Shown piece after piece: positions 16,130-51,947 of a DNA stretch of 64,000 bases. A model generated the notes under the pieces. That model was not told the origin of the DNA, ran no database searches, and saw only the letters and a list, made by a program, of their open reading frames with translations. A program made the translations under genes and the position numbers. The stretch comes from Escherichia coli. GTDB taxonomy: Bacteria; Pseudomonadota; Gammaproteobacteria; Enterobacterales; Enterobacteriaceae. The stretch lies in the NCBI RefSeq assembly GCF_051903065.1, contig NZ_CP178438.1. The stretch is one strand, 5' to 3'. Position 1 is the first letter of the stretch. Every line of letters begins with the position of its first letter.

Positions 16130-16156
16130 AAAAGGCCGGATTTTCCGGCCTTTTTT
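16130..16156 (+). terminator. Rho-independent terminator after accC
   Basis: aaaaggccggattttccggcctttttt: GC stem followed by T-tract. Confidence 0.6.
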
Positions 16157-22237: not shown

Positions 22238-22463
22238 CTGAACAGGGCGCGGAGTTTCGCGCTCTGTTTAACGATACAGTATCTTTACATAAGATAAAAT
22301 ATTGCTATATTCTGCTGGCTAATTCTCTGCTGATTTAGCATGTTATATCGCGTTATTTCGCTGCTTTCGAAATAACGCATCAATTTAACTTTCGCACTTC
22401 CCACCAGAAATATACTCACGCTAACAATCATTATTCTGCTTAGTAAAACACGCGTAAATATTT

Positions 22464-24951: not shown

Positions 24952-26055
24952 ATGACAAAAGTATTGCTGTCTCATCCCTCGCGCCCGGCGAGCCATAACT
25001 CAAGCCGCGCGATGGTGTGGGTGCGAAAAAATCTGTTCTCCAGCTGGAGCAATAGCCTGCTGACTATTGGCTGCATATGGTTGATGTGGGAACTGATCCC
25101 ACCGTTGCTGAACTGGGCATTTTTGCAGGCTAACTGGGTTGGCTCAACGCGTGCCGACTGCACAAAAGCCGGTGCCTGTTGGGTCTTCATCCACGAACGA
25201 TTTGGTCAGTTTATGTATGGACTTTACCCACACGACCAACGCTGGCGAATTAACCTGGCATTACTGATTGGCCTTGTGTCAATCGCACCAATGTTCTGGA
25301 AAATACTCCCGCATCGCGGTCGCTATATTGCGCTCTGGGCAGTGATTTACCCACTGATTGTCTGGTGGCTGATGTATGGCGGTTTTTTTGCTCTTGAGCG
25401 GGTTGAAACCCGGCAATGGGGCGGGCTGACGCTAACTTTAATTATTGCATCAGTTGGGATTGCGGGGGCGCTACCGTGGGGGATCTTACTGGCGTTAGGT
25501 CGCCGCTCCCATATGCCGATTGTGCGTATCTTATCGGTCATTTTTATCGAGTTCTGGCGCGGCGTACCGCTGATTACCGTATTGTTTATGTCTTCGGTCA
25601 TGCTGCCTTTGTTTATGGCAGAAGGCACCAGTATCGACAAACTGATCCGCGCGCTGGTTGGCGTGATCCTGTTTCAGTCAGCATATGTTGCGGAAGTCGT
25701 GCGAGGTGGATTACAGGCGCTGTCTAAAGGGCAATATGAAGCGGCAGAGTCGCTGGCGTTGGGTTACTGGAAAACTCAGGGGCTGGTTATTCTGCCACAG
25801 GCGTTGAAGCTGGTAATTCCTGGGCTGGTAAATACCATCATCGCACTCTTCAAAGATACCAGCCTGGTGATCATTATCGGGTTGTTCGATCTTTTCAGTA
25901 GCGTTCAGCAGGCAACCGTTGATCCCGCCTGGTTGGGTATGTCGACGGAAGGGTATGTTTTCGCCGCGCTGATCTACTGGATCTTCTGTTTCAGCATGTC
26001 ACGTTATAGCCAACATCTGGAAAAACGTTTTAACACCGGGCGTACACCGCATTGA
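24952..26055 (+). CDS. yhdY: Amino-acid ABC transporter permease
   Basis: Second ATG of ATGATG after AGGAG gives [18 protein letters not shown], 367 aa. Confidence 0.85.
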
Positions 26056-26062
26056 GGACACT

Positions 26063-26821
26063 ATGAGCCAAATTTTACTGCAACCTGCTAACGCGATGAT
26101 TACGCTGGAAAACGTCAATAAATGGTATGGACAATTCCATGTTTTGAAAAATATAAATTTAACCGTGCAACCGGGAGAACGGATCGTTCTGTGTGGCCCT
26201 TCAGGTTCCGGTAAATCGACAACCATTCGTTGTATTAATCATCTGGAAGAACATCAACAGGGACGGATCGTGGTAGATGGCATCGAACTTAATGAAGATA
26301 TCCGCAATATTGAGCGCGTCAGGCAGGAAGTGGGAATGGTCTTTCAGCATTTCAATCTCTTCCCTCATCTGACCGTTCTACAGAACTGTACCCTGGCACC
26401 GATTTGGGTACGCAAGATGCCAAAGAAAGAGGCTGAAGCTCTGGCGATGCATTACCTTGAGCGGGTGAGAATTGCCGAACATGCGCATAAGTTTCCCGGA
26501 CAGATTTCAGGTGGTCAGCAGCAACGCGTTGCCATTGCGCGCTCGCTGTGTATGAAGCCGAAAATTATGTTGTTTGATGAGCCCACATCGGCGCTCGATC
26601 CGGAGATGGTGAAAGAGGTGCTGGATACGATGATTGGGCTGGCGCAATCGGGTATGACAATGTTGTGTGTAACCCATGAGATGGGGTTTGCGCGAACCGT
26701 CGCTGACCGGGTGATTTTTATGGATCGTGGCGAAATAGTGGAGCAAGCTGCACCGGATGAGTTTTTTGCGCATCCTAAGTCAGAGCGTACGAGGGCATTT
26801 TTATCGCAGGTAATCCATTAA
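26063..26821 (+). CDS. yhdZ: Amino-acid ABC transporter ATP-binding protein
   Basis: 252-aa ORF with Walker [10 protein letters not shown], signature [13 protein letters not shown] and Walker [12 protein letters not shown]. Confidence 0.9.
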
Positions 26822-26844
26822 TTGAATGTTAGTTCGAAAAGCAT

Positions 26845-26870
26845 AAAGGCCATCCTTTCGGATGGCCTTT
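26845..26870. terminator. Perfect palindromic hairpin aaaggccatcctttcggatggccttt, likely bidirectional terminator (yhdZ on +, rrn operon on -)
   Basis: Inverted repeat read directly, between convergent yhdZ and rrfF. Confidence 0.6.
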
Positions 26871-27010
26871 CGCTTGATTTGATGTCTGGCAGTTTATGGC
26901 GGGCGTCCTGCCCGCCACCCTCCGGGCCGTTGCTTCGCAACGTTCAAATCCGCTCCCGGCGGATTTGTCCTGGTTGGGAGAGTGTTCACCGACAAACAAC
27001 AGATAAAACA

Positions 27011-27040
27011 AAAGGCCCAGTCTTCCGACTGAGCCTTTTG
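27011..27040 (-). terminator. rrn operon terminator hairpin (T1-like)
   Basis: aaaggcccagtcttccgactgagcctttt flanked by A/T runs, immediately 3' of the 5S gene on the minus strand; resembles the rrnB T1 region. Confidence 0.6.
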
Positions 27041-27049
27041 TTTTATTTG

Positions 27050-27169
27050 ATGTCTGGCAGTTCCCTACTCTCGCATGGGGAGTCCCCACACTACCATCGG
27101 CGCTACGGCGTTTCACTTCTGAGTTCGGCATGGGGTCAGGTGGGACCACCGCGCTACTGCCGCCAGACA
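27050..27169 (-). rRNA. rrfF: 5S rRNA, distal copy
   Basis: 120-nt match to reverse complement of E. coli 5S rRNA, with a few variant positions. Confidence 0.9.
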
Positions 27170-27206
27170 AATTCTTTTCTAATCTGCCGAACTTTAACCT
27201 AAAAAG

Positions 27207-27282
27207 TGGTGCTGATACCCAGAGTCGAACTGGGGACCTCACCCTTACCAAGGGTGCGCTCTACCAACTGAGCCATATCAGC
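27207..27282 (-). tRNA. thrV: tRNA-Thr
   Basis: Reverse complement reads GCTGATATGGCTCAGTTGGTAGAGCGCACCCTTGGTAAGGGTGAGGTCCCCAGTTCGACTCTGGGTATCAGCACCA (76 nt). Confidence 0.9.
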
Positions 27283-27294
27283 ACGCTAAATTTG

Positions 27295-27414
27295 ATGCCT
27301 GGCAGTTCCCTACTCTCGCATGGGGAGACCCCACACTACCATCGGCGCTACGGCGTTTCACTTCTGAGTTCGGCATGGGGTCAGGTGGGACCACCGCGCT
27401 ACGGCCGCCAGGCA
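27295..27414 (-). rRNA. rrfD: 5S rRNA
   Basis: 120-nt match to reverse complement of E. coli 5S rRNA. Confidence 0.9.
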
Positions 27415-27506
27415 AATTCTGTTTTATCAGACCGCTTCTGCGTTCTGATTTAATCTGTATCAGGCCGAAAATCTTCTCTCATCCGCCAAAACAGCTTCGG
27501 CGTTGT

Positions 27507-30409
<2,903 letters not shown>

Positions 30410-30592
30410 TCACAACCCGAAGATGTTTCTTTCGATTCATCATCGTGTTGCGAAAATTTGAGAGACTCACGAACAACTCTCGTTGTTCAGTGTTTCAATT
30501 TTCAGCTTGATCCAGATTTTTAAAGAGCAAAACTTCGCAGTGAACCTTTGCAGGTACACTCTGAAGTATTTTTTATTTAATCACTACAGAGA

Positions 30593-41528: not shown

Positions 41529-41530
41529 TT

Positions 41531-41556
41531 AATAAGGCGTCTAATGACGCCTTATT
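41531..41556 (+). terminator. Candidate terminator after trkA
   Basis: aataaggcgtctaatgacgccttatt inverted repeat followed by T-rich tract. Confidence 0.5.
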
Positions 41557-41657
41557 ATTTCCCTTTGATTATCAAGGATTAATTAAATTCATTCCTGGCA
41601 GGAAAATGGCTTAACATTTGTTAGACTTATGGTTGTCGGCTTCATAGGGAGAATAAC

Positions 41658-43143: not shown

Positions 43144-43209
43144 AAATACTCCAGGGGATGAACAAAAAGAGTACAGCTATTGTAGATAAGTGGGGATGCT
43201 ACGGGTATA

Positions 43210-43237
43210 AAAAAACCCGCCGGGGCGGGTTTTTTTA
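43210..43237 (-). terminator. Rho-independent terminator after rplQ (end of alpha operon)
   Basis: aaaaaacccgccggggcgggttttttt: GC hairpin with flanking A/T runs on both sides. Confidence 0.65.
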
Positions 43238-51890: not shown

Positions 51891-51922
51891 GAAAAAATAA
51901 ACGGCTCATTTCTGAGCCGTTT
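51891..51922 (-). terminator. S10 operon terminator (after rpsQ)
   Basis: Minus-strand transcript: aaacggctcagaaatgagccgttt hairpin followed by TTATTTTTTC. Confidence 0.65.
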
Positions 51923-51947
51923 ATTCGTATCGAGAGAGTGTACTGTA

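Follow-up and report, generated by a model that had tools for sequence, protein, structure and literature searches.

What occupies the 228 bp that separate the gene yhdZ from the distal 5S rRNA gene converging on it in a 64,000-nucleotide stretch of an Escherichia coli chromosome (contig NZ_CP178438.1 of assembly GCF_051903065.1; the whole stretch is called the window here)? Our analysis indicates that this gap (26822-27049) very probably holds the known distal arrangement of the ribosomal RNA (rrn) operon rrnD, in which terminator T1, the small RNA (sRNA) gene rrF lying in a tRNA-linked repeat (TLR) and terminator T2 follow one another, T2 ending yhdZ as well. The arrangement itself is already known, and only the copy polymorphism among strains and the wider repeat family may be worth following up. 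Anatomy, homology, repeat, structure conservation and the population and taxonomic distributions were established in our own analysis; the efficiency of the terminators, the ends of the RNAs, the binding to CsrA and Hfq and the 3′ end of yhdZ were taken from the literature on K-12 rrnB and rrnD.

Nucleotide comparison showed that the gap is 100% identical to E. coli O157:H7 chromosomes, and identity to it was at least 99% in 1061 records. The stretch is an O157:H7-type E. coli chromosome and the gap is the distal end of its rrnD operon. The Rfam matches on the minus strand of the window (16S, two tRNAs, 23S, 5S at 27297-27412, a tRNA at 27210-27282 and 5S at 27052-27167) show the rrnD arrangement. 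In the annotation of an identical O157:H7 genome, yhdY and yhdZ share one strand, and the opposite strand carries 5S, tRNA-Thr, 5S and 23S. As an earlier reading of the window from its letters alone (the sequence-only reading) had stated, yhdZ on the plus strand, ending at 26821, and the distal 5S gene rrfF on the minus strand, starting at 27050, converge on a gap of 228 bp. No feature is annotated under the gap match in any of the genomes listed; annotation pipelines leave the gap empty, though an sRNA gene known from the literature lies in it and two transcription units have their 3′ ends there. In the rrn direction, rrfF is followed by T1 (27046-27003), the TLR body, an 18-nt copy of the 5S tail (26894-26877) and T2 (26870-26845). 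The features are the following:

26874-27046, minus strand: rrF, encoding the 173-nt form of the RrF sRNA (T1 hairpin plus TLR body); ends set by homology with those mapped by S1 for RrB.
27003-27046, minus strand: T1 hairpin, the first, leaky rrnD terminator (terminator scan; homology to rrnB T1).
26988-26998, minus strand: UGUUUGUCGGU, resembling the 5S 5′ end UGUCUGGCGGC (minimum free energy structure).
26945-26967, minus strand: TLR stem-loop 2, CAAATCCGCC-GGGAG-CGGATTTG (fold).
26916-26945, minus strand: TLR core GAACGTTGC-GAA-GCAACGGCCCGGAGGGTG, that is, stem-loop 3 plus a small GCCC/GGGU helix, common to the tyrT and Gammaproteobacteria TLRs.
26898-26916, minus strand: TLR stem-loop 4, GGCGGGC-AGGAC-GCCCGCC, with GGA in the loop, a CsrA-type motif (fold; motif reading from PMC8144298).
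27045-27062, minus strand: first copy of the 18-nt repeat, the true rrfF 3′ end plus 5 nt of trailer (repeat search).
26877-26894, minus strand: second copy of the 18-nt repeat, the TLR 3′ end and presumed second RNase E site (repeat search; RNase E reading from PMC8144298).
26877-27044, both strands: 168-bp unit (T1, TLR body and one repeat copy) that is missing from the short rrnD alleles (alignments, population counts).
26845-26870, both strands: T2 hairpin, the outer rrnD terminator and yhdZ mRNA 3′ end (terminator scan, repeat search).
26832-26844, minus strand: U-rich tract after T2 in the rrn direction, UUUAUGCUUUUCG (terminator scan, alignments).
26871, plus strand: probable yhdZ mRNA 3′ end, transferred by homology from a K-12 Term-seq end, 50 nt past the stop codon.
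27050-27169, minus strand: rrfF, distal 5S rRNA gene of rrnD (Rfam 5S match 27052-27167, 89.5 bits; exact ends by sequence; annotation).
26063-26821, plus strand: yhdZ, amino-acid ABC (ATP-binding cassette) transporter ATP-binding protein (open reading frame, ORF, of 252 aa; named yhdZ in an identical O157:H7 genome).

The hallmarks of a TLR were all found in the interval between the two hairpins. The element lies directly 3′ of the 5S gene, in the same orientation, and ends with an exact 18-nt copy of its tail; this repeat, AACTGCCAGACATCAAAT, joins the final 13 nt of 5S to 5 nt of trailer, and its two copies lie 168 bp apart. The tail copy tracks the gene it belongs to: both copies at rrnD carry A (CCAGACAT, specific to rrfF) and both at rrnB carry G, and the same holds in two Citrobacter units. 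The body consists of three small hairpins and carries five GGA motifs, all intact and all downstream of T1, at RrF positions 77, 91, 96, 124 and 139, and its closure is predicted from the fold to involve pairing of UGUUUGUCGGU (26988-26998) with the repeated 5S tail. When the published ends of RrB were placed on the window, they gave exactly 173 nt (26874-27046). The sequence-only reading was thus right about the terminators; it had taken the about 130 nt between the hairpins, which correspond to TLR/rrF, for a spacer, and it had overlooked the 18-nt direct repeat of the 5S tail.

In K-12, rrnA, rrnB and rrnD end in dual terminators and the intervening sequence is a TLR (Stenum et al., 2021; PMC8144298). 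Our sequence check agreed with that work in finding T1-TLR-T2 in these three of the seven K-12 operons only; rrnG has a T2-type terminator behind its 5S gene, and the single terminators of rrnE, rrnH and rrnC are unrelated. The RNAs RrA, RrB and RrF (RrA/B/F) are made by T1 read-through, have their 5′ end at an RNase E site 3 nt past 5S, occur in lengths of 173 and about 115 nt, show a half-life of about 2.5 min, and carry five GGA motifs, binding CsrA (about 100 nM) and Hfq in vitro (PMC8144298). By analogy, the O157 copy of rrF is expected to behave as K-12 RrA/B/F do in transcription, processing and CsrA/Hfq binding. A promoter scan revealed no sigma-70-like promoter in 26000-28000, and an independent rrF promoter is therefore unsupported. 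Searching the literature for later work on RrA/B/F or for polymorphism among strains returned only the original paper and one editorial.

At Rfam gathering thresholds the window yielded rRNA, tRNA and StyR-44 matches only, none of them inside the gap. Lowering the threshold to E ≤ 10 brought up a full-length match to RtT RNA (RF00391) at 26887-27009 on the minus strand (24.0 bits, E = 0.012). The element in the window is related to the RtT family but is no member of it. Matches at the same threshold to MicC, ohsC, STnc40 and similar families were dismissed, as only the T1 terminator hairpin was matched.

The tyrT TLRs, which the RtT model represents (K-12 rttR), likewise lie directly 3′ of a stable RNA gene, but the 18-19-nt copy with which they end is that of the 3′ end of their own tRNA-Tyr gene, whereas the rrn element copies the 5S tail. 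Both have the core GAACGTTGC-loop-GCAACGGCCCGRAGGGTG, and a local alignment of the two scored 40 compared to 15.5 ± 2.2 for shuffles (z = 10.9, 0 of 1000 as good). They differ in that the K-12 tyrT copies score 133-137 bits with the RtT model and the window element 24, in their flanking hairpins, which are unlike, and in that the tyrT copies form a tandem array whereas the rrn element is a single unit between two terminators. In addition, GGA-loop hairpins and predicted CsrA binding characterise the rrn-type TLR, and the TLRs linked to tRNA genes are not so predicted (PMC8144298). 3′ETS-leuZ, from the glyW-cysT-leuZ trailer, is likewise cut out of a stable-RNA 3′ trailer by RNase E and has no promoter of its own (PMC8144298); it has no sequence kinship to rrF, and it acts by base-pairing as a sponge for RyhB and RybB whereas RrA/B/F are proposed to act on CsrA.

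Both T1 and T2 were detected by the terminator scan as G+C-rich hairpins with a U-rich tract on the minus strand. T1 starts 4 nt past the rrfF 3′ end and forms 20 pairs on that strand, with a GGAA loop followed by UCUGUUGUUUG; its one G-U pair turns into an A-C mismatch on the plus strand, and the stem energies are -29.5 kcal/mol (minus strand) and -24.7 kcal/mol (plus strand). The hairpin that the sequence-only reading had placed at 27011-27040 is thus real, but it is larger than stated (27003-27046), the proposed span covering approximately the G+C-rich core (27010-27039). Between rrnB and rrnD a G-C pair of T1 is replaced by A-U at 27039/27010, a compensatory change noted earlier by Cambray et al. 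(2013; PMC3643576), who included rrnD T1 among the terminators with a measured efficiency. In rrnB, T1 is 87% and T2 about 100% efficient (Orosz, 1991, via PMC8144298). The 5′ flanks of T1 and T2 are alike (repeat family D2, 90% over 30 nt), and the two look like diverged copies of one terminator.

T2 lies 24 nt past the yhdZ stop codon and 180 nt beyond T1. Its arms AAAGGCCATCC and GGATGGCCTTT (26845-26855 and 26860-26870) make up a perfect 11-bp stem around a 4-nt loop, GAAA on the rrn strand and UUUC on the yhdZ strand, with stem energies of -19.0 kcal/mol (minus strand) and -18.1 kcal/mol (plus strand). This hairpin has homologues in rrnB T2 and in the only terminator of K-12 rrnG. It shows the layout of a bidirectional terminator, a symmetrical G+C-rich hairpin that is A-rich on one side and T-rich on the other and stands between convergent units, and it was picked up by the scan on both strands, although its plus-strand tail UUUCGCUUGAUUU is poorer than its minus-strand tail. 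In supplementary file 1 of Adams et al. (2021; eLife 10:e62438), the K-12 Term-seq 3′ end 3423244 (plus strand) is listed as 'primary' for yhdZ, with the contexts ...GGAUGGCCUUUC and ...GGATGGCCTTTC, one nucleotide past the T2 stem. This yhdZ end lies at the base of T2, which is therefore used from the yhdZ side and from the rrn side; by homology, T2 probably forms the 3′ end of the yhdZ mRNA. The proposal that this palindrome could end transcription in both directions is thereby supported. The Term-seq supplement of the TERMITe paper contained no entry for yhdZ or rrfF. Northern blots show a longer species of RrA/B/F, presumed to include T2 (PMC8144298).

Folding of both strands, which had been proposed as a check on whether the hairpins are too weak for termination, gave strong structures, well beyond chance. 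The minus strand of the gap folds at -109.3 kcal/mol compared to -64.9 ± 4.9 kcal/mol for dinucleotide shuffles (z = -9.0) and the plus strand gave z = -8.6, with 0 of 200 shuffles as good on either strand. Perfect hairpins with stems of at least 11 bp and loops of 3-8 nt are estimated to occur about 0.1 times per 64 kb of random sequence, and six were found in the window; the five other than T2 (16130-16154, 22350-22378, 41530-41557, 43208-43237 and 51896-51925) are probably other terminators or elements of the repetitive extragenic palindromic (REP) type. The 5S-T1-TLR-T2 units that were aligned number 12 and come from Escherichia, Citrobacter, Enterobacter, Pseudescherichia, Pseudocitrobacter and Rahnella. 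Their consensus fold comprises 70 pairs; double compensatory changes occur at 13 of them, mostly in T1 and T2. The core hairpin of the TLR (stem-loop 3) is invariant in these units and hence gives covariation evidence in neither direction.

K-12 rrnD has the same locus and order (yhdZ, T2, TLR, T1, rrfF; PMC8144298, PMC3643576), is 98.2% identical to the gap over 228 nt and shares the 18-nt repeat, the five GGA motifs and the hairpins. The O157 allele differs from it by AACC for GAGT at 26972-26976, directly upstream of stem-loop 2, by which part of the 5S-like GAGTAGGA is gone; an AGGA motif near this site is kept. At position 26844 the U of K-12 and the other aligned sequences is replaced by A in O157 (UUUAUGC instead of UUUUUGC), so that its T2 tract, UUUAUGCUUUU, has one U fewer than that of K-12. 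O157:H7 carries one rrn-TLR copy per genome and K-12 three.

The likeness to the rrnB T1T2 cassette of expression vectors that the sequence-only reading had pointed out was confirmed by alignment: K-12 rrnB T1-T2 is colinear with the gap and 92.1% identical to it over 214 nt. Compared without gaps, the two differ at 18 of 215 positions, and the longest stretch of exact identity (86 nt) is within the TLR body. Besides the compensatory change in T1, rrnD differs from rrnB in the T1 loop, in the T2 loop (GAAA instead of UGAC) and in the rrfF-type A of its 5S-tail copy. The contexts also differ, murB being co-oriented with rrnB whereas yhdZ converges on rrnD, so that T2 is common to two transcription units at rrnD and not at rrnB. 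The cassette found in small cloning-type plasmids equals K-12 rrnB over 215 nt and shares the 86-nt exact run with the window locus. Since the locus is native, it is reasonable to treat matches from vector screens as false positives, as had been suggested; the rrnB cassette carries a paralogous sRNA, and genome-to-vector matches here are accordingly native. Vectors with this cassette would also express a CsrA/Hfq-binding RNA.

The presence of the unit was then counted in complete E. coli genomes (5425 or 5426). The TLR body (26895-27002) was found somewhere in 3944 of 5426 genomes and nowhere in 1482, about 27%; the yhdZ-linked long allele at rrnD is present in 3250 of 5425 and the long allele at rrnB in 2514 of 5425, and 40% of complete genomes lack the unit at rrnD. 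Genomes with a TLR have a median of 2 matching places, copies range overall from 0 to 3 or more, and in the O157:H7 genome the window copy is the single one. TLR-less strains mean that natural RrA/B/F-null lineages exist. The range from none to 3 or more copies, with none in about 27% of genomes and one in O157:H7, constitutes a natural experiment that could show whether RrA/B/F have a physiological role.

Short rrnD alleles, e.g., that of APEC O1:K1:H7, lack exactly the 168-bp unit, so that 5S is directly followed by T2, as would be expected for a deletion between the 18-nt repeats, within which the boundaries of the unit can slide. Short rrnB alleles (IHE3034, L007:131-300; 21B8, L008:131-300) miss 167-168 bp and have a single terminator, whose flanks are of T2 type and whose hairpin interior, GGCCCAGTCGGAAGACTGGGCC, is of T1 type; these alleles are not simple deletion derivatives of the K-12 long allele. 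The polymorphism loci compared with window positions 26877-27044 were L004:1201-1273, L007 and L008. The T1+TLR unit also adjoins yhdZ in Citrobacter youngae (L063), and because of this the absence of the unit from rrnD in E. coli would be most simply explained as loss. Neither this 168-bp presence/absence polymorphism nor the restriction of O157:H7 to one copy was found in the searchable literature.

Taken together, these data suggest the following course of events, modelled on K-12. Most rrn transcripts would stop at T1, and the minority reading through it would carry the TLR and stop at T2. RNase E would cut 3 nt past the real 5S end and presumably at the repeated tail, freeing the short-lived RrF of 173 nt, which would be trimmed to about 115 nt and, as in vitro, bind CsrA and Hfq. 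The RrF level would follow rRNA transcription because RrF has no promoter of its own. T2 would insulate yhdZ and the heavily transcribed rrn operon from each other because the mRNA of the convergent yhdZ probably has its 3′ end there too.

No observation speaks against the identity of the locus; the weak points lie on the functional side. The RtT match of 24 bits stays below the gathering score of 45, and O157 has four differences from rrnB at 26972-26976. The U-to-A change in the U-tract of T2 (26844) might affect the terminator. With Term-seq, termination looks the same as 3′ trimming back to a hairpin, and the passages of Adams et al. (2021) consulted contain no rrn-strand 3′ end at T1 or T2. 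Deleting and overexpressing RrA/B/F gave modest and paradoxical phenotypes (PMC8144298). Moreover, RrF is dispensable, because the rrn-TLR is missing altogether from about 27% of genomes and is absent from rrnD in 40%.

The last two points bear on the rival with the most in its favour, namely that the region is a tandem terminator only, the TLR being a neutral or selfish repeat and RrF a read-through by-product without a role. We consider this possible but doubtful. It would agree with the 1482 of 5426 complete genomes without an rrn-TLR and copy numbers from 0 to 3 or more, with short alleles that are clean deletions between 18-nt repeats, and with K-12 results, where a triple deletion had weak phenotypes, the half-life was about 2.5 min and CsrB out-competed RrB about tenfold (PMC8144298). 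It is harder to reconcile with a TLR body that is nearly invariant across operons and genera, 86 nt being identical between O157 rrnD and K-12 rrnB whose terminators differ, with the retention of all five GGA motifs, on which specific CsrA binding depends (PMC8144298), and with the unit being kept beside yhdZ in C. youngae (L063). The T1-T2 interval might instead be a decayed third 5S gene (pseudo-5S) that arose by tandem duplication of 5S plus terminator, given that it starts with the 5S-5′-like UGUUUGUCGGU and ends with an exact 5S tail, that the K-12 interval has GAGTAGGA, matching 5S GAGAGTAGGGA, just before the core, and that the 5′ flanks of T1 and T2 are alike. However, the Rfam 5S model found nothing in the interval even at E ≤ 10, the interior is the TLR core, which is common to tRNA-linked elements and has no 5S counterpart, and tRNA-linked TLRs each end with the tail of their own gene, which a 5S pseudogene cannot explain. 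A pseudo-5S is thus improbable and largely refuted.

Two further explanations fared worse. A small protein encoded in the gap, comparable to the 'tpr' ORF annotated inside the tyrT TLR (within K-12 rttR), is very unlikely: ORFs of 40 aa (26818-26940, minus strand), 126 aa and 140 aa do overlap the gap, but all three start with TTG, the two long ones enter the distal 5S gene, both minus-strand ORFs cross T2, cross-genus variation is compensatory variation of RNA stems, and no feature is annotated under the gap match in the genomes listed. Contamination with a cloning vector, or an engineered insertion, would account for the cassette-like sequence, and small cloning-type plasmids do carry the rrnB cassette. 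Against this, the locus shows 18 differences in 215 positions, including rrnD-specific changes, and has its native neighbours, yhdZ and rrnD; identity is 100% in the O157 genomes listed and at least 99% in 1061 records, and other genera have the same layout. Contamination is hence refuted and the idea can be given practically no credence. A tRNA-like gene in the interval was also considered and rejected by eye, the plus-strand TTCAAAT being without a T-stem (the tRNA finder was not run on the gap).

The T1-rrF-T2 arrangement, which we retain, has relatives beyond rrn operons. Repeats linked to tRNA genes were reportedly described by Egan and Landy in 1978 and by Rudd in 1999. According to Rudd (1999, via PMC8144298), 22 TLRs occur at 10 loci, their hallmark being the 18-19-nt copy of the 3′ end of the upstream gene. 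A scan of GTDB, one genome per species, with the motif CGTTGC-N3-5-GCAACGRCCCGRAGGG gave at least 120 loci and at least 150 occurrences. Among the matches listed, 107 of 150 had a same-strand stable RNA gene within 450 nt upstream, namely tRNA-Lys (33), tRNA-Tyr (28), 5S (18), tRNA-Arg (16) and tRNA-Pro (12), and nearly all of these 107 had a copy of the 3′ end of that gene after the core, typically 15-25 nt past it and mostly 13-27 nt long. Such tail copies across genera independently confirm the family hallmark. The TLR core motif thus appears to be widespread in Gammaproteobacteria, which was not found in the searchable literature.

Some 5S-linked units, e.g., in Superficieibacter, Siccibacter and Kluyvera, have no T1 and are located within the operon, with 5S on one side and a downstream tRNA gene on the other. 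In this T1-less subtype (L018:36-300, L042:16-280, L085:254-518, L106:3189-3453 and L129:2852-3116), a 5′ arm, GGCAGTTCACTACTC, is complementary to a split 5S-like 3′ part (GAGAGTAGG ... AACTGCC). In Pseudescherichia vulneris (L058:143-407), T1+TLR has a degenerate copy of the 5S tail and seems to adjoin the end of a yhdZ-like gene directly, with no T2 hairpin.

In Pseudomonas and Pectobacterium the three-hairpin module of the TLR forms intergenic tandem arrays with a 73-75-bp period away from stable RNA genes, with 2.8-3.5 copies where measured (L033:3570-3834, L083:980-1187, L034, L105 and L119-L121); each module consists of a GGA-loop hairpin, AACGTTGC-NNN-GCAACGGCCCGAAGGG and a second GGA-loop hairpin. 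Stenotrophomonas has single module copies, with no tRNA or 5S detected upstream; single copies were seen at L019 and L052. No Rfam family matched the Pseudomonas/Pectobacterium/Stenotrophomonas module at the gathering threshold. A vector origin of the core matches in Stenotrophomonas and Pseudomonas was rejected, the sequences differing throughout from the E. coli cassette. A broader proposal is that the 168-bp unit is a gain/loss cassette bounded by the 18-nt repeat, that the module AACGTTGC-N3-5-GCAACGGCCCGRAGGG between GGA-loop hairpins is a CsrA/Rsm-binding RNA propagating across the Gammaproteobacteria as a mobile or recombination-spread element, and that O157:H7 relies on one copy; we regard it as speculative and rather unlikely.

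Finally, some differences were observed between the two 5S genes of the operon. Comparison of rrfF (27050-27169) with the proximal rrfD (27295-27414) showed a compensatory pair in helix I (UGUCUGG...CCAGACAU and UGCCUGG...CCAGGCAU, respectively), CAG instead of CCG at positions 11-13, and GGGGACUCCCC instead of GGGGUCUCCCC, K-12 rrfF having U at that position in the Term-seq context. Further upstream in the operon, StyR-44, a known rrn-associated element, gave a full-length Rfam match at 30417-30525 on the minus strand (122.9 bits), in the 16S-23S spacer directly upstream of 23S.

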